Origin: Rhodospirillaceae bacterium
Lineage (GTDB): Bacteria > Pseudomonadota > Alphaproteobacteria > UBA7985
Assembly (NCBI GenBank): GCA_038141425.1
Contig: JAYQIC010000007.1
Span: 75,554 to 139,553 of the forward strand
DNA: 64,000 nt
Direction: 5' to 3'
Part shown: one piece after another, positions 32,100-64,000 of the stretch
Layout of the letters: every line of letters starts with the position of its first letter
How positions within the stretch are numbered: the stretch's first letter is position 1
Made by a program: the position numbers and the translations under genes
Notes under the pieces: model-generated
Told to the model about the DNA's origin: nothing
Database searches by the model: none
Seen by the model: only the letters and a program-made list of their open reading frames with translations

Positions 32100-32733
32100 G
32101 TCGCTAGCTTTTAGAAGAGGTGTCGGGTGCAATCCCGGCGCGGTGGTGGCGCTGGTCCTCGCGAGGGGGTCAGCGCCGCTTTCTTTTTGGGGACGACCTG
32201 TCGCGGATTGTGAGCGTGAGAGATTTGTAAACCACGAAGCGGCGTCAAATCGAGCGCGCCACGGTAACCTTGCGTGCTGGAGTGGCTCACTTTTCCGACA
32301 CGGTGAGTGGCGCGCTCGGACCTTGGCCGCTTCGCGGCCTTCGGTCCTCCCACGCGCAACTTCTTTTTTATTGGCTCGAATTGGGGTTGCCGTTACGCCC
32401 GGAACAGGTTGCGCCGACCTTGTCTCGACCGCTTCGCGGTCTTCGCCAAGGCGTCGCGCAAACAAGAATGAGAGACGCCACGCCGAGCGGAGCACGGCGT
32501 GTCTGTTTAATTGCGCGGATTTGAGCCGCAGGCCGCGAAGCGGCCCAGGCTCAAGTCCGCAACCTGAGGCCTTTGCGCCGGAGCAAGACGCGTTGCGTAG
32601 GTGCAGAAAAGGACCTACTGGTAACCATAAAGTTCCGCACTGACACGCCGGTGACGCTCCGGCGCAAGAACCCGGGCGCAGACCTGCTTGGCTGGAGCTC
32701 AAACAGTACAACCAGAGCCAGAAGGGGCCGAGC
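32100..32733. repeat. Intergenic repeat region A: hairpin-rich composite repeats sharing modules with 35165-35881 and 62200-62700
   Basis: 47-nt block 32414-32460 identical to 62333-62379; 43-nt module 32220-32262 recurs at 62594-62636 and inverted at 35449-35486; multiple GC-hairpins with GAA/TTC triloops. Confidence 0.6.
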
Positions 32734-35164
32734 GTGAAGCGTCAAACCGAAGCCGTCATCATTGGCGGCGGAGTCATCGGGTGTTCGATCGCCTATCACC
32801 TCGCCAAGCTTGGCATGACCGACGTCATGCTGCTGGAGCGTCAGGAGCTGACCAGCGGGTCATCCTGGCACGCGGCCGGAGGCGTCCACGGTCTGCACGA
32901 CACCAATAACATCGCGCGGCTCCAGTACTACACTATGAACCTATACCCGGAACTGGAGCAGGAAACCGCGCAGTCTGTTGGCTTCCAACAGACCCGATAC
33001 CTCTACTTGGCCCAGACGGAAGACCGCGCGCACCAGCTGCGGATCAGTGCGGCCAAGGCCCGCCAGTTTTCCGGGGTGGAATTCCACGAGATCAGCCTCG
33101 AAGAAGCGTCGGAGCGTCATCCCTTTGTCAATCTCGACGGTATCCGGATGGCGGTCTGGGAGTCCGGAAAGTGGTCACGTCGACGTCAACGGTGTCACCC
33201 ATGCCTATGCGCAGGCAGCCCGAAACCGTGGTGTCAGCATCGAGCGGTTTTGCCCGGTGCTGGAGACCAACCCGCGCCCCGATGGCGGCTGGGACGTGGT
33301 CACGGAAAAGGGTACGATCCAGACCCGGGTGCTGGTGAACGCGGCGGGCCTCTGGGGGCGGGAAGTGGCACGGCTGGCAGGCCTCGAGCTACCGCTGATG
33401 CCGCTCGAGCACCAGTACTTTGTCACCGAGGAGATACCTGAGGTCGCCGCGCTCGGCTTTGAACTGCCGGCCGTCGCGGACCGAGACGGTGAGTACTACC
33501 TGCGGCAGGAGGGCGAGGGCTTTCTCGTCGGCGCCTACGAGCGCGATGGACGCTACTGGTCTGAGAACGGCACGCCGCTGGACTTCGGTCATGAGCTGCT
33601 CAACGACGATCTGGATCGGATCGCTGACAACGTCATGCGGGCCTGTGAGCGGCTTCCAGCACTCGGGGAGGCGGGCATCAAGCGGGTAATCAACGGGCCC
33701 ATGATCTGGTCACCGGATGCGGCTGCTCTGCTTGGTCCCGTGCCAGAGTTGAGCAACTACTACACCGCTTGCGGCATCATCCCCGGATTCTCCCAGTCCG
33801 GGGGCCTGGGGCTGACGCTCGCGCAGTGGATCATCGACGGTGAACCTGAGTACGACATGTTCCCCTGGGACATGGCGCGCTACGGCGACTGGTCCGGGAA
33901 GGCCTTCACCAAGGCCCGCACGCTGGAGACCTACGGCACCCGCTTTTCGATCCATTTCCCTTTCGAGGAGCGCGAGGGCGGGCGCCCGGTCCGCAAGCGT
34001 CCGGTCTACGACCTGCAGAAGCAGCTGGGGGCTGTGTTCGGCCTCAATTTCGGCTGGGAACATCCACTGTGGTACGCCCCTGAAGGCGAGGTGGCCGAGG
34101 ACAGATATGGCTTCGAGCGTCAGGATTGGTGGCACCATGTCGGCGCTGAGTGCCGCGCGCTGCGCTCGGGCGTGGGGATCATAGATGTCTCCAACTTCGC
34201 CAAGTACGAGATCCGGGGCGCCGGTGCTGCCCGCTGGCTGAACCAGGTGGTCGCCAACCGCGTGCCGACGGAGGTCGGACGCTCGTGCCTGACGCCTTTG
34301 CTGTCGGTAAGGGGCGGAATCGCTGGCGACTTCACCATCACCATGCTCGACGAGGAGCACTTTCTGATGATCGGCTCCGGGATGGCCGAGCGGTACCACC
34401 GCCGCTACTTCAACGCGGTGCCACGGCCAGACAGCGTCAGCTTCCAAAGCATGACCAGCGGCTGGGCGGGCTTTAATGTGGCCGGGCCTTCAGCGCGGGA
34501 ACTGCTGGGACGCCTGACCAACGACGACATCAGCAACGAGGCCTTCCGCTTCATGCGCTCGCGTCAGATGACCGTTGCGGGTCTGGCGGCGAAGGTGCTG
34601 CGGGTCAGTTTCACGGGCGATCTTGGCTACGAGATCTATGTGCCGGAAGCCGATCAGCAGGCCCTCTATCAGGCTTTGCTGGATGCCGGCGAAGAACTGT
34701 CGGTGCGGCCGGTCGGGTCGCGGGCGCTGATGAGCCTGCGTCTGGAGAAGGGTTACGGCTCATGGGGGCGGGAATACTCGCCGGAGTACTGGCCGCAGGA
34801 GGTTGGGCTGGACCGACTGATCAAGCTCGATAAGGACGAGGCCTTTCTCGGCAAGCAGGCCTACATGGAACTGATGGACCGGCCGCCCCGGGAACAGCTG
34901 GTGGTCATGCGGGTCGACACCCCAAACAACGCTGATCCGGTCGGCGGCGAGCCAATCTTCTCACGGGCGGGCGACTATATTGGTCGGGTGAGTTCCGGGG
35001 GGTACTCTTATACCACCGAGCAGGGCCTCGCGCTGGGCTTCCTGAAGCCGGAATACTGCGAGCCGGGGACGGCCGTAGACGTTGCTGCGCTCGGCCTGCC
35101 GCACGCTGGAACGGTTCTGGGTGAGGCGCCTTTTGATCCGTCCGGCGCGCGTCTTCGCGGCTGA
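32734..35164 (+). CDS. Dimethylglycine/sarcosine dehydrogenase family protein (FAD oxidoreductase plus GcvT-like folate-binding domain); GTG start; frameshift near 33165 (AA to AAA)
   Basis: N-terminal AVIIGGGVIGCSIAYHLAK FAD fold; C-terminal aminomethyltransferase-like domain; collinear ORFs 32734-33441 and 32978-35164; about 810 aa total. Confidence 0.8.
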
Positions 35165-35881
35165 TAGGCTTGGGGGCGACAGTTGGCCTTAGCATTCGAT
35201 GAAAATTTGCGCGACGCTTGGCGCCGCCGCGCGAAGCGCGGTCGGCGGCAAGTCGGCGCAATTTCTTTCGGCTAACATTTAATACGCTCAAAGGTCCTGC
35301 GACAGGATCAGGATAAACGCCGCCGTGTTAAGCGCAAAGTAAGGAGCTGTTAACTGCTGAATGCGTGTTGAGAGTGTAGAAGAAGCAGCATGGAGCACTC
35401 CAACGCGCTCACAGCGAAGCGTTTTGAGCGCCAAGTGAAAGATGTTGCGTGCTCGATTTGACGCCGCTTCGCGGCTTACAAATCTCTCCCGCGCAGTCAA
35501 ACGGAAAGGCTGCGCTGCGCGCAGCCTGACGTCTTCTCTCTTAGAATTTGCGCGACGCTTGGTCGCCGCGCGAAGCGCGGTCGGGGCAAGTCGGCGCAAC
35601 CTCATTTCAGGCAGGACTCTACCACGCTCAAAGGCGTAGCCGTTTTGAGCGTAAAGAGAAGGTCGGCGCAAAAACACCTCCACTGGTCCGCCTTGGCCTT
35701 CGCCATCGTCGAGCCTTCCCAGCCAGACAGAGAGACAGCGAGCCAGCGCCAACACCGCGCATTGTGGGCTGCCGCAGCTCAACCTTGGTCGGCAGGGCAT
35801 TCGCCCTATCTCTTCATCTAGGCGGCGTGCAATCGCATCCCCCGCCCTATGTACATTGTCCCGTAATGAGGAAACGCACCC
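35165..35881. repeat. Intergenic repeat region B: two direct copies of a 53-56 nt long-hairpin module plus an inverted copy of the module from region A, and CGCTCAAA/TTTGAGCG palindromes
   Basis: 35206-35261 and 35546-35598 are near-identical; reverse complement at 62478-62533; 35449-35598 is inverted-homologous to 62478-62636. Confidence 0.6.
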
Positions 35882-38932: not shown

Positions 38933-39015
38933 ACTACTGAACCTCAATCAGCCTTGACCCGATAGCGTTTCTGGTCCTCATTCTCCGTACAGAAAAGGGA
39001 GAGGGGAGACAAGAT

Positions 39016-55654: not shown

Positions 55655-57056
55655 CTATTGGATGCTGTCGACGATCATATTGGCCATCTGGCGCAGTGGC
55701 TCGACATTGTAGGTGAAAGCGGGCGACGTGTTTACCTCGTTGATGACGAAATCCGGATCCTCCACCAGGAGATCTTCAGAGATAAAATCGATGCTTCCCT
55801 CTTGTATGTCGAAAATCTTCATAATCTTTTGAACAACCTGACGAACCTGCTCAGGCAAATCATCTTCGGTGAAGTAATAGTTCGTATGGCCAAAGGTCCC
55901 ATTTTGCTGATGTATGAAAAACACCTGATCTTTTTCGAGGACTGAGTCATACGTGAGTCCGGCCCGCTCCAGATTTGCATTGAAAACTGGCGATCGCATC
56001 ATGTTTTTGAAAATGGGCCTCGGTTTGGTGAAGTTCTCACCCGGCTCGGTATCCTCGCAAAATGTTTTCAGCAATGAGCGGATGTTGCTCGAACCATCGC
56101 CAAACAGTCTGGGTCGGTACTTCTGATGAATGAAAATGATTTCACCATCAAACAGGCAAACTCGATAGCTTTCGCCAAAAAAAATGCTTTTCAACAATGA
56201 AATCGTATTCGTTTAAATTGATTCGGTCCAAAATTGATCGTAAATAAGACTCGTCCATAATATTTGCATAGATAGCAATATTACCATTAGTATTATTTGG
56301 CTTCAGGACAATTGGGTATGAATTTTCAGCTGCAAAATCCAGAATATCTTGCGGGCTGTATACAAACTGAGGGTCAGTGGTTGGAATGTTAGCGTCCCTG
56401 AGGATGTCACACGTCAGCTTTTTGCTCATCAGCAGCTTGACCGTCAGTTCACCGGTCGTTTCCGATAGACTGCCCCGGAACAACCGAAATTTTTCACCCT
56501 TGCCGACCATGAACGTACCGCTCTTGTCCACCTCCGTGACGGGCGCATCTCGATCGTGGATGAACCTGAGGATGATACGCTGGTTCAGGCCTTTCAGGCC
56601 GTGTTGTTTGAGGGCTTCCTGAAACTGGCCAACCTGTTCGAGGAAACGGGCTTGATCGAACTGTTTCGTGGGGGCGAGGAGCCCGTCTTCGAGCAAGTGC
56701 TTAAAGAGCCGCGCCGGGAGCCATCGGGGACCAACCCGCGTGGGTAGGTAGTATTGCCCATTGAGGTCGCTGCCGCGTTCCGGCTGAAAGACACCAACCT
56801 GAAACACGGGCCACTTGGCGGCGAGGCATGCGCGGTAGACCCACCCCAGCACCTGTCGGGCGCGTCCATCCAGCGGGCTCGTCTGTGGCGTCTCGAATTC
56901 AGGCTCTTCCCATGCGCCAAGGGCCCGGTCGAGAGCCTTGACCGCGTCTTTGTTAAAGGCAGCGGAGGTTGCGCCCTCGACGATGAAGCCGACGGCTGCG
57001 CCTTTGAGGCCATTCTCTGGTTCGGCTACGTAGCTAAGCTTTGATACCAATGTCAC
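55655..57056 (-). CDS. ATP-grasp ligase (cyanophycin-synthetase/RimK-like ATP-grasp domain) with an unrelated N-terminal domain; frameshift near 56150-56200. The ATP-grasp half is in AT-rich DNA.
   Basis: C-terminal blocks ...YPIVLKPNNTNGNIAIYANI..., GDGSSNIRSLLKTF, DSVLEKDQVFFIHQQNGTFG, SIDFISEDLLVEDPDFVINEVNTSPAF match the ATP-grasp B and C subdomains. Pieces in ORFs 56148-57056 and 55655-56197. Confidence 0.6.
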
Positions 57057-57322
57057 GCTGGGCTCGCCTTTTCAGGTTTCCGGGATCAGGCATCCTAAAA
57101 AGGTGCGCTGTCTTAGATCGTGAGGAAATCCATGCGTCTGTAAAGGGCCAGCATGTTGAGGCGAGGTGAAACACCCTAAAAATGCAGTGGTTTTATATCG
57201 GTGAGCCTGCACGGATGACTTGGGTGCAAAACGACCCGATCAGCAGTTCAGGGCACTCTATCCGCTGCGGGCAGCAGTGAGGGCCGTCGCATTCGATGGC
57301 CCTCGCTGGTCTGTCTCAGATT

Positions 57323-57949
57323 TCAGAACTGGAACACTGCAACCTGAACGTCGACGCAGGGCGGGTTCGGGAAGTCTGCCTCGCAGCCCCCGTTCATCGT
57401 GTTCAGCATATCGTTGAGGATGGCCGGATCAGCCGGTCCGTGATCGCGAACCACGAGGTGGATCTCTGCCGTGCCGGGCAGGACGATGCCGGGGCCGCCC
57501 ATGGCTTCGGAAACGTCACCGATCGGTAGGTGGGCATTAAAGACGATGTTGCCGGACTGGTCGGCGACCATCCCATCGGCCCGAAGGACGGAAATACCGA
57601 CGGCTTCCCACTGCGGCAGGTTCACGGGCGGCAGGCCGTCGTCAGTGATGATCACTGCGCCGTCAGCGTCGGTCAGCAGCACGTCATCGGTGCCGCACGC
57701 ACCGTCGGTGCAGTTTTCCGGATAGTTATAGACGGTCCACCACAGGGTATAGGCGTTGTTCGGAACCAGGTCGGTTGTCGAGACCCGTGTCGCGAGGCCG
57801 TAATCCATCCGATCGAGGCTGGCTTCAGAATTGGCGACGGCACCGAAGTCGGGCAACGAAATCATTGTGGTGTTCTGTGTTTCGGCCTGAGCGATCGTGC
57901 CGAAGGCGAAGAGGACGAGGGTTGATAGCAAGGCGATGGCGGTCTTCAT
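57323..57949 (-). CDS. Secreted hypothetical protein (signal peptide, about 190 aa mature, 6 Cys)
   Basis: MKTAIALLSTLVLFAFGTIAQA signal peptide; no recognised domain; lies in a lower-GC region next to tRNA-Trp. Confidence 0.4.
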   Translation of the reverse strand: MKTAIALLSTLVLFAFGTIAQAETQNTTMISLPDFGAVANSEASLDRMDYGLATRVSTTDLVPNNAYTLWWTVYNYPENCTDGACGTDDVLLTDADGAVIITDDGLPPVNLPQWEAVGISVLRADGMVADQSGNIVFNAHLPIGDVSEAMGGPGIVLPGTAEIHLVVRDHGPADPAILNDMLNTMNGGCEADFPNPPCVDVQVAVFQF

Positions 57950-58321
57950 GGTCAGGATCCTTAACTCGGTAAAAAAGTTCAAACACACTAAAACTGTCAA
58001 TATTTCTTTCAGATACGGGCTGTGTCAATCGGTAACCAATGGTGTTGAAGGTGGCGAGCCGCCCCAAAGCCCCGAATACCGGGGGCAAAGCACGGCACTC
58101 AAATTAGTGGAATTCCATTCACAAACCGTGCCGTCCGCTAGGCTATACCTCCCTAGATCCGTGGAGGAAGCTGCAACGGCTCGTAACCTCTGCTCGCGCC
58201 TTTGGCCCTTGCCGCTAAGCTATTTTACTGCCGGTGCCTTCAGCGGCGTCTGGATGCGGCTACTTTAACCAGAAAATGGGTTTTGTCAGGACCGGTAACC
58301 GGGGAAGGGGGAGAGGGATGA

Positions 58322-58394
58322 TGGACCATACAGGATTCGAACCTGTGGCCTTCCGATTGGAATCGGACGCTCTATCCTGCTGAGCTAATGGCCC
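58322..58394 (-). tRNA. tRNA-Trp (anticodon CCA) with an apparent 6-nt anticodon loop (TTCCAA; expected TTCCAAA). No encoded CCA.
   Basis: Reverse complement GGGCCATTAGCTCAGCAGGATAGAGCGTCCGATTCCAATCGGAAGGCCACAGGTTCGAATCCTGTATGGTCCA folds as a cloverleaf with 7/4/5/5-bp stems and a GGTTCGAATCC T-arm. Confidence 0.8.
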
Positions 58395-58490: not shown

Positions 58491-59443
58491 CTACCAGGCC
58501 TTTGCAGCCTCCACCGCTGCAGTCAGGGCTTCAATAATCGCGGGTTCGGCCGCGGAATGCCCCGCCTGCTGCACCACCTGCAGGTCGAGCTGCGGCCAAC
58601 GCTGCTGCAGTTCATAGGCGCCAGAGAGCGGACAGATCATGTCGAACCGACCGTGGACCAGCACGCCCGGAAAATCGAAACCACCCTCGGGAACGCAGGA
58701 CAGCGCACCGTGCTCGGGGTCGTCGAAAAAGCAGTCGTGGGCCAGGTAGTGTGCCTCACAGCGGGCCATGCGCCACGCCGCTTCCGAGGCGCCGAAAGAC
58801 CCGCCCCCGGCCAACGAGGAACAGGCGGACTCATAGCGGGTCCAGGCTTCCCCGCCGATAGCCGCACCCGACGGTCACGGTCGTCCAGCCGTTCGCGGTA
58901 GCCCGCAAGCGGGTCCCCGCGCCGATCCTCGGGCAGGGCCTCCAGCCATCGGCGGTGGGCGTCGGGGTAGAACCGGCTCAGCCCGTCGAGGAACCATTCG
59001 CGGTCTGCCCGCCGACCGAGGAACAACCCGCGCAGGACGAGCCCGCGCACGGTGTCGGGGTGCTGCCCCGCATAGGCCAGTGCCAGCGTCGCGCCCCAGG
59101 AGCCACCAAACACCAACCACTGGGCGACGCCGAGATGGCGCCGCAGCGCATCGGAATCCGCGACGAGGTGCCAGGTGGTGTTGGCTCGCAGGCCGCCACC
59201 GGGGGTCGAGCGCCCTGCGCCGCGCTGGTCAAACTGGATCACGCGATAGTGGCTGAGGTCGAAGAAGCGCCGGGTCCAGGCGTTGGCGCCGGCCCCGGGG
59301 CCCCCGTGCAGGCAGACCACAGGCACGCCCTCGGGGTTGCCCGCCTGTTCGTAGTACAGGCTGTGCCCATCCGAGACCGGGAGATAACCGCGGTCGTAGG
59401 CCTGTTCGCCCTGTCCCCGCTTTGAGTGTTCGACCTTATCCAT
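58491..59443 (-). CDS. pip: Prolyl aminopeptidase (proline iminopeptidase); frameshift near 58815-58880
   Basis: N-terminus MDKVEHSKRGQGEQAYDRGYLPVSDGHSLYYEQAGNPEGVPVVCLHGGPGAG, GGSWGATLAL nucleophile, C-terminus HGRFDMICPL...AGHSAAEP in ORF 58491-58814. Confidence 0.8.
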
Positions 59444-59494
59444 GCTGCACCCTATATCTGTTCCATACAGCAAGTTCTCAAGGTGAAAGCGACC

Positions 59495-60849
59495 ATGACC
59501 CAGGCAAATCCCGCACCCGCCCTCGACCTCGAAGACCGGGTTGGGGCCCTGATCGACCGCGCGCGCGCTGCCGGCGCCGATGCTGCAGACGCTTCGGTGT
59601 TCGGCAGTGACCAGATTTCGGTGGGCCGCCGGATGGGGCAGATCGAGACGCTCGAGCGGGCGGACAGTGCCGGGGTCGACCTGCGTGTGTTCGTCGACGG
59701 CCAGATCGCGCAGGTAAGCGGCAGTGATCTGTCCGACCAGGGCCTGATACGCCTTGCCGAGCGAGCTGTGGGCATGGCCCGCCACAGCCCCGCAGATCCC
59801 TTCGCCAAGCTCGCTGAGCCGGGGCAGGTGGCGACCGAGTGGCCGACGTTGGAAACCGCAGACCCGGTCGAACCGTCCACCGACGGCCTGCTGGCTATGG
59901 CTGAGGCTATGGAAGACGCCATGCTGTCGGTCGAGGGCGTGACCAACTCCGGCGGGGTTTCGGCTGGCTGGACCAAATCTTCGCTTGTTATGGCAACGAC
60001 CAACGGATTCGTCGGATCGGTGCAGGCGACTCGTTTCGGGATATCCGGCAGCGCCATCGCCGGCAGCGGTGAGGCGCAGAAGCGCGACTTCGACTACGAC
60101 CTCGCCGTCTTCGCCGAAGACCTCGGCGATCCGGCTGCCGTGGGGCGGGAGGCCGGACAACGGGCGGTCAGTCAGCTCGGGGCACGCCCGGGTGCGACGG
60201 CCAAAGTGCCGGTGATTTTCGAGCCCCGGGTTGCTGTGCGCATGCTCGGGCTGCTGACCGGTGCGATCAACGGCGAGTCCGTGGTGCGCGGCACCAGTCT
60301 GCTCGCTGATCACGTCGGCGAGCTGGTGATTTCGCCCGACCTCTCGGTGCACGAAGACCCGTTCAAGGCGCGTGGGCAGGGCAGCCGCCCGTTCGATGGT
60401 GAGGGCCTGCCGGTCCAGCCGCGCGCGATTTTCGAAAACGGTGTGCTCCAGACCCATCTGCACAATCTTGCGACCGCCGCGCAGGCCGGTGTCGAGCCCA
60501 CAGGCCACGCCAGCCGTGCCGGGGCGTCAATCGGGGTCGGCCACGCCAATCTGTGGCTCAGCCCGGGATCGGTGTCGGTCGAGGATATGCTGGCAGCAGC
60601 GGGTGAGGCCTTCTACGTCACCTCGCTGATGGGGCAGGGCGCGAATATGATCACCGGAGACTACAGCCAGGGCGCGACCGGCTTCTGGGTCCGCGATGGC
60701 CAGCTTGCTGAACCGGTGGAGAGCATGACGCTGGGGGCCGGCTGCAGGATATGTGGCGTTCGATGTCGGCGGCTGATGATCTGACTTTCTTTGGTGGCAT
60801 GGGCACGCCGACGGTGCAGATGGATGGTCTGACCGTGGCCGGCGCCTGA
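59495..60849 (+). CDS. pmbA: TldD/PmbA family metalloprotease (PmbA/TldE-like); frameshift at a GGGGG run near 60745
   Basis: PmbA_TldD domain; corrected C-terminus LQDMWRSMSAADDLTFFGGMGTPTVQMDGLTVAGA is canonical. Confidence 0.8.
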
Positions 60850-60910: not shown

Positions 60911-62198
60911 TTGCTGACCCTGCTGTCCATGCTGTCTGTTTTGTTGGCGCCGCTGCTGGTGCTGGGACTGCGCTTGCGTGGGGAACCGGCTGCGCGGACT
61001 GATGAACGGCTCGCCCGGCGCTCTCCGGCAAAGATGGAGCGAGCGAAGAACACCAAAGCGACCGATGCCCGCGAAGTGCTGTGGTTCCATGGGGCATCTG
61101 TTGGTGAAGTCCGGGCGCTGCTGCCGCTTGTTCTTCACTATGCAGACCGGTTTCAAGCTGGAGCAGGCGTCCTGCTAACGGTGCAGAGCGCACAGGGTTA
61201 CGCGGTCGCAGCGCAGGCGCTCGAGGCTTGCCCGCAGGCGGCAGTCGCCATGGCGCCCATGGATCATCCCGGGGTTATGACGCGGTTCTGTCGGCTTTAT
61301 CGGCTGCGCGGGCTGGTGCTCTACGAGAATGAAATCTGGCCCTGCTGGCTGGCCGCAACGCGGATGAGGGGCGTTCCAGTGGTCCTGCTCGATGCCTCGT
61401 TGTCGGCGCCCAGCCTGGGGTTCTGGCGGCGTTGGCCGGGGCTCGCGGCGTCGGTCGGGGCAGCGCTGTCGCGGGTGACAGCTGCGGACGCCGGGCAGAC
61501 ATCGGCCCTGCAAGCGCTGGGCTGGGGGCCGGTGCGGAAGGCGTTGCCGCTGAAGCTGGTTGGCTCGGCGCTGCCGGTTGATCCGGCGGAACTGGCGCGC
61601 TGGCAGCGCTGGCGCCGGAAGGATGCGCCACTGCTGGTCTTTGCCAACGTCCACCCTGGTGAAATCCGGGCCGTGGCGGACATGATCGCGGCCTGGATGG
61701 TGCGGGGGCGGGGGGCGGACAAGGCAGGGCCACCGCGTAAAGACGGGGATCGGGCTGAGGTGCAGATCATTGTCGCACCCCGACATCCGGAGAAGCTGGC
61801 GCATTTCGAGCAGGTCCTCGGTGACGAAGGGCCCGGGTTGGCATACTGGACCGGATTTGGGACGCTGGGTACGCTCTACGCGCTGGGCGGAACGGTGGTG
61901 GTCGGCGGCGGTTTCGACCCGCGGGTCGGCTCGCACAACCCGATGGAAGCGCTCCGGGCGGGCTGTCGTCACCGTTTGCGGGCCGCACGCCGGAAAGCAG
62001 GCGACGTTGATAGCGTTGCTTGAAGCCGAAGGGCTGCTTGCGCGCTGGTCCGATCTGGTTTCGCCAGAGGGCCGGAGCAACGGCTCTGGTACGGCTGATG
62101 CCGGGTCGGAAACGCTCGACGCTCTGTCGAGAAAGGCGGAAGCAACAGCGCTTGCAGCGATCGAGGAGGCTGTTTTCGGGACGAAACCCGATGCCTGA
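60911..62198 (+). CDS. waaA: 3-deoxy-D-manno-octulosonic acid (Kdo) transferase; frameshift near 61960
   Basis: LWFHGASVGEVRALLPL motif; C-terminal continuation in ORF 61770-62198 (VVTVCGPHAGKQATLIALLEAEGLL). Confidence 0.8.
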
Positions 62199-62199
62199 G

Positions 62200-62700
62200 A
62201 TTTGAGACCGGAACGCCGCGTGGCTGGTCTTTTTGACGTTTATCGCTCAACAGGGCGGAGTTTATCCGGAGCCTGTCGAAGGACCGTTGAGCACCTTTCT
62301 CTCTTTACGCTCAACACGGCTGCGTGATCGACCCGACCTTGTCTCGACCGCTTCGCGGTCTTCGCCAAGGCGTCGCGCATTTAACTTTTGCGCTCAAAAC
62401 GCTACGCTGTGAGCGCGTTGGAGATCATTGATGGAACGACGCTCAAAGTGCCGCATGTTGAGTGTCAGAGGAAAGAAGTTGCGCCGACTTGTCCCCGACC
62501 GCGCTTCGCGCGGCGGGGCCAAGCGTCGCGCAACTCCATAGAAAAATGACGTCAGGCCGGGCGAAGCGCGGCCTGTCCGTTTGACTGCGCGGGGAGATTT
62601 GTAAGCCGCGAAGCGGCGTCGAATCGAGCCCGCCACCCTACGGTGTTTGTTAAAAGTGATCGATCTGGGAGCGAGCAAGCCCGGAGAACCCACCGCTGTC
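62200..62700. repeat. Intergenic repeat region C: inverted copy of the about 160-bp composite element from region B, plus the 47-nt block shared with region A
   Basis: 62333-62379 identical to 32414-32460; 62478-62636 is the reverse-complement homolog of 35449-35598; several CGCTCAAA-N11-TTGAG palindromes. Confidence 0.6.
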
Positions 62701-64000
62701 TCAGAGTAGTGAGCCCTGATCTTCGTCCACCTCGCGAGGGGGTCGCTTTGACCGACCTGCAGTCCCGGTAGACGATGTCGTCGTCTTGGGTGGTTTTACC
62801 CCCCTCGACGCCTCTGTTTCGCCGGCAATCACGTCAATCGGGCCATCGATGAAGTGCAGCCGCAGCCGGTCACCGTCTGCAACGCCTCCGGCACGTGGCA
62901 CGACCGCTCCATCCTCGGCGCTGACCCAGACGTAGCCCTGTTCCAGAAGCCGGTCCCGGCTCGTTGCAAAGGAGTCCAGCAACCGCTGAACGTTACTGAG
63001 CGCCTGCTGGTGCTGGTCCAGGCGCCGCGCGGTTGCCTGCTGCATGCGGTCACCAAAGCGCTGAGCAGCGAACGTCCCCGCGCGCGAGCGTGCGGCCTGC
63101 CCCGCCGCGGACCCAAGCCGATCGCTCAGGCTGCGCGCCTGTTCGCCCATGCGCTGCAGTCGTTCCCGTGGGTGACGCACTTTGGCAGCGACAGTGTCGA
63201 GCTGGCTCTTCTGCCCCGGATTGCCGCCTGCAGTCCCCGGTCGAGCCGCTGTTCGAGCACGTCGAGGGCCTGTCGACGCTCCTGCAGCACCCGGTTGGGA
63301 TCGACCAGCCCGCGCGCCAGCCCGGCCAGCTCGGTCCTCGCCTGCTGTGCCTTGCGCTGCAGCCCACGGCCGATGCGCGCACCAAATTCCTCCACCCCGA
63401 GCAGCAGGTCAGCCCGCACCGGGACCGCCATTTCTGCAGCCCCGGTGGGCGTCGGCGCGCGGCGGTCGGCGACAAAGTCGATCAGTGTCGTGTCGGTCTC
63501 GTGTCCGACGGCTGAAATCACCGGGATACGGCTGGCTGCCACCGCCCGCACCACGGCCTCTTCGTTAAAGCCCCACAGGTCTTCCAGCGAACCCCCGCCC
63601 CGGCCCACGATCAGAACGTCCGGCCGCGGCACGTCGCCTCCGGGTTCAATGGCGTTGAAACCCGCAATCGCGGCCGCAACGTCCGGCGCTGCCCGCTCCC
63701 CCTGCACCGAGACCGGCCACAGGAGTACGTGCCGGGGAAAGCGGTCCGCAACCCGGTGCAGAATATCGCGGATCACCGCGCCGGTGGGTGAGGTCACCAC
63801 CCCGATCACCTGCGGCAGAAACGGCAGGGGCTGCTTTCGTCCAGCCTCGAAAAGGCCCTCGGCCATCAGCCGCTTACGCCGGTCCTCGAGCAGCTTCAGC
63901 AGCGCGCCTTCGCCCGCCAGCTCCATCTGCTCGATCACCACCTGATACTTCGATCCGCCGGGGAAGGTGGTCAGCTTGCCGGTGACAATGACCTCCATGC
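62701..64000 (-). CDS. xseA: Exodeoxyribonuclease VII large subunit, 5' end outside the window; frameshift near 63150-63180
   Basis: ORF 63126-63998 ([25 protein letters not shown]...[58 protein letters not shown]) and ORF 62701-63180 are collinear with XseA. Confidence 0.8.

Follow-up and report, generated by a model that had tools for sequence, protein, structure and literature searches.

A probable REP/BIME-like mosaic family of intergenic hairpins in an uncultured marine alphaproteobacterial lineage

Background

Repetitive extragenic palindromes (REPs) are recognized operationally as extragenic, palindromic and relatively short sequences (14-40 nt in E. coli) that occur as similar copies, classically more than 100 of them (PMC12306157), and bacterial interspersed mosaic elements (BIMEs) have been described as showing length polymorphism, hybrid forms and complementary mutations (PMC2817692). 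Some published REPs have a GCGAAGC centre (Table 1 of PMC2817692), and the DNA mini-hairpin d(GCGAAGC) is known for its extraordinary stability (PMC13037366). Here we describe hairpin repeats in a 64-kb stretch of a Rhodospirillaceae bacterium (contig JAYQIC010000007.1, positions 75,554 to 139,553), referred to as the window at its full length. A first-pass annotation had noticed that a gene resembling dimethylglycine dehydrogenase (DMGDH) is flanked there by reusable repeat modules, and had offered as explanations a REP/BIME-like family or one like MITEs (miniature inverted-repeat transposable elements), a set of structured RNA elements, or the remnants of a mobilised gene cassette. Our analysis indicates that the repeats probably form a REP/BIME-like family of mosaics that is specific to one uncultured lineage of marine Alphaproteobacteria.

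Palindromic elements of other kinds also enter the comparison. The core sites of integron attC elements read 5'-RYYYAAC…GTTRRRY-3'. The Rhizobium-specific intergenic mosaic elements (RIMEs) of the Rhizobiaceae, reportedly described by Østerås et al. in 1995, are said to be intergenic mosaics with large palindromes. The term RIME is cited in PMC2573895 and PMC2873474.

Hairpin repeats in the window

Three intergenic regions were compared (A, 32100-32733; B, 35165-35881; C, 62200-62700), the first two being the spacers on either side of the DMGDH-like gene (32734-35164), 634 and 717 nt long. Both spacers are non-coding, since the open reading frames (ORFs) inside them have no Pfam match and gene calls in relatives leave them intergenic. 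The relatives are Tara and Joint Genome Institute (JGI) marine metagenomes and metagenome-assembled genomes (MAGs), one of them titled 'Geminicoccus sp. SP156'; loci fetched from them carry L numbers below. All three regions draw on a common set of reusable 52-57-nt hairpin modules.

Every repeat that the first-pass annotation had listed was reproduced, in place or a few bases off. These include the inverted pair that brackets the gene (32211-32262 versus 35444-35495; 52 nt, 88% complementary), a long hairpin present twice in direct orientation (35204-35294 and 35545-35634; 83% over 93 nt), a 47-nt exact repeat (32414-32460 = 62333-62379, 100%), and an element of region B that lies inverted in region C (35444-35606 versus 62636-62472; 87% over 166 nt). 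A more diverged third copy of this ~165-nt block, ~71% identical, is located at 32403-32564. The repeats exceed chance, because the arm pattern of the hairpin named H1 below matches seven times in the window against 1.28 expected and none of 100 shuffles reaches seven. Moreover, 11 of the 25 GCGAAGC heptamers of the window fall inside these ~2 kb, and the 64 kb hold 18 module hits at the three loci. The annotation had proposed RNA folding as a check; folded as DNA, the modules are long hairpins with z-scores of -2 to -5.3.

Module grammar and conservation of structure

The modules fall into five or more subfamilies. Five, made up of 52-57-nt nested hairpins, were resolved by scanning the window and related DNA for strong hairpins with GCGAAGC at their centre, and they group in two families that have the GC-GAA-GC apex in common. 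Family 1, with termini TTGCGCGACGC…GTCGGCGCAA, comprises H1 (55 nt, apex CCGCGC-GAA-GCGCGG) and H1v2 (53 nt, apex GACCGC-GAA-GCGGTC). Family 2, with termini GTGCGCG…CGCGCCAC, comprises H2, H5 and H4, whose middle stems are ATTTG/CAAAT, GGACC/GGTCC and GATTTGAGCC/GGCTCAAGTC, respectively. Within each family the members are alike at termini and apex, and their middle stems differ yet stay complementary; the termini and apex are thus kept in sequence, and the middle stems only in pairing. Linker hairpins (H3, H6 and H7) join the units of both families into recurrent composites such as the 163-nt H1-H3-H2, with H1(-)H3(+)H2(+) and H5(-)H3(+)H2(+) as recurrent syntaxes in which orientation alternates only in part. 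The ACGCTCAAA motif of H6-type hairpins occurs five times in the window, against 0.36 expected.

Hairpin pairing is preserved through compensatory changes. The covariation across relatives that the first-pass annotation had suggested looking for was found, in two pairs of H1 and six of H3. H1 is 98% paired, its alignment has a mean column identity of 96% over 20 distinct variants, and ten copies equal the consensus, while in the composite the six H3 pairs show compensatory double changes and H1 and H2 are nearly invariant. These formal counts apply to H1 alone and to the composite; because MAFFT misaligned the H1v2 apex to that of H1, the sequences themselves were inspected for covariation between subfamilies.

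Dispersal beyond the window

Copies elsewhere, which the first-pass annotation had proposed to count, were found in the relatives, where the modules occupy ~20 distinct intergenic loci and not only the three known from the window. Matches to the exact H1 pattern occur on 18 metagenome contigs of the JGI, of which nine come from a single sample. A genome scan with the pattern TTGCGCGACGCYTKG…GGTCG, which is permissive and gave mostly chance matches in unrelated phyla among the matches listed, returned among those same matches at least three MAGs in which the copies are genuine; over 8 kb one of these is 91% identical to the window, and another is 'Geminicoccus sp. SP156'. Plasmid and viral-contig searches with the repeats gave no match, and a full-text literature search for the terminal sequences found no paper that contains them.

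The 35 non-redundant H1 copies end sharply, their flanks are unrelated, and paralogous copies are 95-100% identical. The 163-nt composite recurs as a unit at no fewer than 12 loci, and a block of ~320 nt is common to region C (62333 to 62650) and L132, ~90% identical between unrelated flanks; whole blocks have been copied between unrelated loci. None of the copies is inside a gene call; they often sit 3-40 nt past a stop codon, in either orientation. The GC3-based gene caller behind this statement is rough (it chose the wrong strand at pmbA) and was used solely to ask whether ORFs span the copies. Neighbouring genes tested by Pfam are housekeeping ones, namely PepA, TyrRS, fumarase, MscS, ProC and others.

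The composite is a discrete, MITE-sized unit with short inverted ends (GGTTGCG…CGCAACC), and its recurrence at 12 or more loci would suit a classical MITE, that is, a deletion derivative of a DDE-type insertion sequence (IS) mobilised in trans. The target-site duplication that marks such elements is missing here, with no direct repeat at any of the 35 H1 or 13 composite junctions, and no transposase was found among the flanking genes tested by Pfam. In addition, the window and related loci gave no tblastn match to any of three recombinases (E. coli RayT, IS200 TnpA and IntI1), a negative that is weak for TnpA and IntI1. The sub-hairpins also stand alone and recombine freely, unlike a unitary MITE. 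We consider this origin highly improbable.

About half of the H1-bearing short-read metagenome contigs end within a few hundred bases of a repeat cluster (L128, L129, L134, L135, L137, L138, L141, L142 and L143), which is consistent with the repeats breaking assemblies.

The DMGDH locus and array remodelling across relatives

Ten syntenic loci, 88.5-96% identical to the window, were fetched via the fasciclin protein encoded beside region B and on many marine metagenome contigs. The order of the genes for the substrate-binding protein (SBP), DMGDH, fasciclin and ABC-F is constant across all ten, whichever modules flank DMGDH. Six relatives have a spacer of 289 nt from DMGDH to fasciclin; elsewhere it measures 534, 717 (window) or 751 nt, and the spacer from SBP to DMGDH is between 401 and 634 nt long. 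In the 289-nt form a single H1 is the sole module of the family, and thus H2 is absent; in the long forms differing modules stand between two directly oriented Family-1 hairpins. At a Na/Ca-exchanger locus, where the spacer sits between divergent genes, three lineages likewise have either one H1 or H1…H1 arrays of differing content within identical flanks. Between close strains, the array at a given locus can grow, shrink or exchange modules, in most cases beside a resident Family-1 hairpin. One of the arrays at the exchanger locus contains four tandem ~40-nt H7 units (L127 4008-4165), a local amplification by slippage or unequal exchange, and L001 carries a chimeric H1v2/H5 hairpin joined at the shared apex.

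The resident H1 after DMGDH differs at ~4 to 7 of its 55 nt between clades (a manual count from the variants). Most H1 paralogues, unlike this old copy, match the consensus, which fits a recent spread or homogenisation of most copies.

The conserved gene order also bears on the proposal that the DMGDH-like gene is a present or former mobile cassette delimited by inverted H2 copies, or, in a variant, that the hairpins are integron-type attC sites. Inverted H2 copies do flank the gene in the window. A 16-mer, GACGCCGCTTCGCGGC or its complement, is common to H2 (35449-35472, 62608-62623) and the attC of aadA7, which has the same GCCGC-TTC-GCGGC apex (PMC2811028), and attC sites resemble the modules in being ~60-nt imperfect palindromes that act as folded single strands. 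Nevertheless, the SBP-DMGDH-fasciclin order is the same in ten relatives irrespective of the flanking modules, and the inverted pair is incidental because six relatives with this order have a single downstream H1 and no H2; this refutes the earlier suggestion of a mobilised cassette remnant. Identity with attC is rejected on core polarity, context and the lack of an integrase: the terminal motifs here (5'-GTTGCGC…GCGCAAC-3') have the opposite polarity, the modules are not separated by ORFs, so that there are no cassette ORFs, the copies lie among housekeeping genes, and tblastn with IntI1 found no similar sequence, a weak negative. We judge the shared 16-mer to be a coincidence between two GC-rich triloop hairpins, and either form of the cassette proposal to be extremely improbable.

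The DMGDH-like gene itself stands where the first-pass annotation had placed it, but not as an intact frame. One extra C at 33164 (GAGTCCGG versus GAGTCGG in L004 and L002) splits it into frames 32734-33441 and 32978-35164, whereas the protein is intact (809 aa) in most relatives. Other window genes are apparently indel-damaged as well (58322-58394, 59426-60784, 60911-62198 and 62701-63998): xseA is present as two ORFs, waaA runs on in another frame, ARAGORN reports a tRNA with a 2-nt anticodon, and pmbA has an aberrant C-terminus without an exact protein match on record. Taken with the frameshift in DMGDH, these defects point to indels introduced by sequencing error in the window rather than to pseudogenes.

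DNA elements or RNA elements

The position of the hairpins invites the reading that they are primarily RNA elements (terminators, stabilisers of mRNA 3' ends or a multicopy small-RNA family), duplicated for their usefulness and not through mobility. Many H1 copies lie 3-40 nt past a stop codon. In six relatives a single H1 is the sole family module between DMGDH and the next gene, with its pairing kept through compensatory changes; H3 covaries; and the first H1 copy has A-rich and T-rich flanking tracts.

Against this, most H1 copies have no T-tract and are followed by CC(N)…, and a terminator scan found none in region C and five in regions A and B against 3.4 expected, no excess over shuffles; a general terminator role is rejected. 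The SBP gene upstream has its own canonical terminator apart from the modules, and a scan of the regions returned no promoter-like sites. The first-pass suggestion of structured RNA elements finds no support: Rfam covariance models gave no match at E ≤ 1 in regions A, B and C (the gathering-level matches were two tRNAs only), copies face either way with respect to the gene upstream of them, and the genes on the two sides of one array are divergently transcribed. Near-identical, sharp-edged paralogues at ~20 unrelated loci fit a DNA element that has spread better than regulatory sequences that evolved independently, and we regard a primary role in RNA as unlikely.

The SBP terminator (32145-32190) consists of a 16-pair stem followed by TTCTTTTT, 45 nt past the gene. 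It is conserved in all relatives, and the repeat modules start just downstream of it.

Other features of the window

The modules of the three regions are collected in Table 1. Two further observations concern other parts of the window. The spacer between the ABC-F and MFS genes (38933-39015) is 84 nt long in the window clade, and in the other clade (L001 13013-13548, L002 13013-13710) it is longer by ~450-620 nt of AT-rich sequence that contains AGGATCG tandem repeats; as a case of the hairpin family this length variation is rejected, the extra sequence being unrelated. A low-GC island (55655-58000; 0.55 versus ~0.64) adjoins the odd tRNA, its ORFs have no Pfam match except a weak ATP-grasp-like one, and it may have been horizontally acquired.

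Table 1. Hairpin modules and composites of regions A, B and C, in window coordinates (z, fold z-score).
Feature	Position	Strand	Remarks
H2 hairpin (Family 2a)	32205..32262	+	Apex degenerate here, ACCAC-GAA-GCGGC (relatives retain GCCGC-GAA-GCGGC); inverted repeat of 35444-35495; 80-91% identical to 62569-62636; folds poorly, z = -0.09
H5 hairpin (Family 2b)	32305..32359	-	H2 termini and apex, other middle stem (GGACC/GGTCC); z = -2.99; 19 H5 copies in 17 fetched loci
Type II composite	32403..32564		H1v2 + H3' + H4; ~71% identical to type I composites
H1v2 hairpin (Family 1b)	32409..32461	-	53 nt; H1 termini; z = -3.1; 16 H1v2 occurrences (window + fetched loci)
H3' linker hairpin	32462..32510	+	CACGCCG…CGGCGTG; aligns to H3 of the region B and C composites
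H4 hairpin (Family 2c)	32511..32563	+	-21.3 kcal/mol, z = -5.3; 5 H4 copies in 5 fetched loci
H1 hairpin (Family 1a)	35207..35261	+	Starts 42 nt past DMGDH stop codon; resident copy, at same position in all relatives; -29.5 kcal/mol, z = -4.45; compensatory C-G -> G-C versus family consensus
H6-long module	35284..35336	+	ACGCTCAAAGG…GTGTTAAGCG; 86% identical to 62244-62292 inverted; also in L002, L004, L126
H7 module	35398..35436	+	GCGCTCACAGC-GAA-GCGTTTTGAGCGC; 95% complementary to 62387-62423
Type I composite	35444..35606	-	H2 35444-35495, H3 35496-35540, H1 35548-35599 (52 nt); 87% identical to 62472-62636; three-hairpin consensus fold
H6-short hairpin	35618..35654	+	ACGCTCAAAGGCGTAGCCGTTTTGAGCGT; z = -4.7
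Orphan H1 3' terminus	35655..35664	+	GTCGGCGCAA; found by aligning orthologous spacers; abuts unique sequence that in relatives comes after the single H1
H6-long (62244-62292) and partial H6-short (62300-62324)	62244..62324	-	86% / 92% identical to region B copies, inverted
H1v2 hairpin	62328..62380	-	One outer terminus degenerate
H7 module	62380..62423	-	
H6-type hairpin	62430..62470	+	CGCTCAAAGTGCCGCATGTTGAG; frequent left neighbour of composite, also in L134, L131
Type I composite	62472..62636	+	H1 62479-62533 (identical to family consensus), H3 62548-62585, H2 62585-62636

Comparison with known systems

The closest likeness is to the REP and BIME elements of E. coli and other Gammaproteobacteria, which are extragenic, GC-rich imperfect palindromes with a consensus and many copies (PMC2817692, PMC12306157) and which form mosaic clusters with linker motifs, strain length polymorphism, hybrid clusters and complementary mutations that keep the palindrome. 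The modules described here share the extragenic location, the stem-loop palindrome and the highly similar copies with a consensus, and they show length polymorphism at fixed loci, as seen at three loci compared across relatives. Of the two affinities offered by the first-pass annotation, the REP/BIME-like one is thus supported, the repeats being dispersed, extragenic, palindromic, near-identical mosaics with strain length polymorphism, whereas the classical MITE half is unsupported, given that neither a target-site duplication nor a parent IS was seen. The hairpin family is probably a further case of the familiar REP/BIME class, and it is no mobile gene cassette. It differs from the gammaproteobacterial elements in its five subfamilies with common termini and apex, in its alphaproteobacterial marine host, and in module sequences that have no similarity to published REPs.

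The REPIN/RAYT systems of Pseudomonas fluorescens and the Stenotrophomonas SMAG elements are similar as non-autonomous hairpins with near-identical copies, no target-site duplication and population-like clusters (PMC3116915, PMC2817692); they differ in pairing two REPs with a spacer, where the present units are single long hairpins with a 3-nt loop, and in having a RAYT gene flanked by inverted repeats, which was not found in the 376 kb sampled. The RIMEs are similar in their alphaproteobacterial host and as intergenic mosaics built from large palindromes; by description they are two fixed elements of ~100-180 bp, in contrast to the combinatorial, interchangeable hairpins seen here.

Several points weigh against a REP/BIME-like assignment. 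At 52-57 nt the units exceed the 14-40 nt of classical REPs in E. coli, although the lengths are comparable in magnitude and the published range sets no strict upper bound. Family 1, whose end is TTGCGC, lacks the GT[AG]G head that is conserved in RAYT-associated REPs, and in Family 2 the end varies between GTGGCG and GTTGCG. Strict BIME-like alternation of orientation is seen in part only. A tblastn search with E. coli RayT (K-12 record) returned nothing below E = 0.3 in the window and 36 related loci, a total of 376 kb that is a small part of a genome and sets the limit of this negative. Within the same limit, no IS200 TnpA, integrase or other transposase gene came to light. Finally, the H1 collection is skewed towards conserved copies by the exact search pattern, and copy counts refer to the 64-kb window and fetched loci. 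Given the longer units, the missing GTAG head in Family 1 and a link to RAYT that is at most putative, we liken the family to REP/BIME elements and do not claim membership of the RAYT-associated class.

Proposed mechanism

We hypothesize that the REP/BIME-like hairpins are dispersed by a trans-acting enzyme that would recognize them as folded single-stranded DNA. Candidate chemistries are those of RAYT or IS200/IS605-like HUH enzymes, which leave no duplication at the target. Arrays might be remodelled locally where the hairpins share termini and apex, through recombination or through slippage during replication, and the hairpins may be tolerated as stem-loops at the 3' end of the upstream mRNA and sometimes be put to use there.

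An alternative places the Family-1 hairpin H1 at the centre, as a single-stranded DNA attachment site for an unrecognised recombinase or a non-RAYT HUH enzyme. The non-coding module arrays always lie beside a resident H1 and are usually bounded by direct-orientation Family-1 hairpins, which is the pattern expected if an H1 in the chromosome is where H1-carrying blocks integrate. Recognition would then rest on the invariant d(GCGAAGC) apex and the termini, and the result, if true, would be a cassette system for non-coding intergenic modules. We hold this to be very unlikely.

Implications

The present data document a REP/BIME-like system with a clear grammar, in which the termini and the mini-hairpin apex are shared and the middle stems can be interchanged. 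The repeats are no sign of a mobile DMGDH gene; they explain differences in spacer length between strains, they probably fragment short-read assemblies of the lineage, and they are usable as strain-typing markers. Should a mobilising enzyme be found, the conserved termini and apex would provide a defined substrate with which to study hairpin-directed DNA transposition outside the Gammaproteobacteria.

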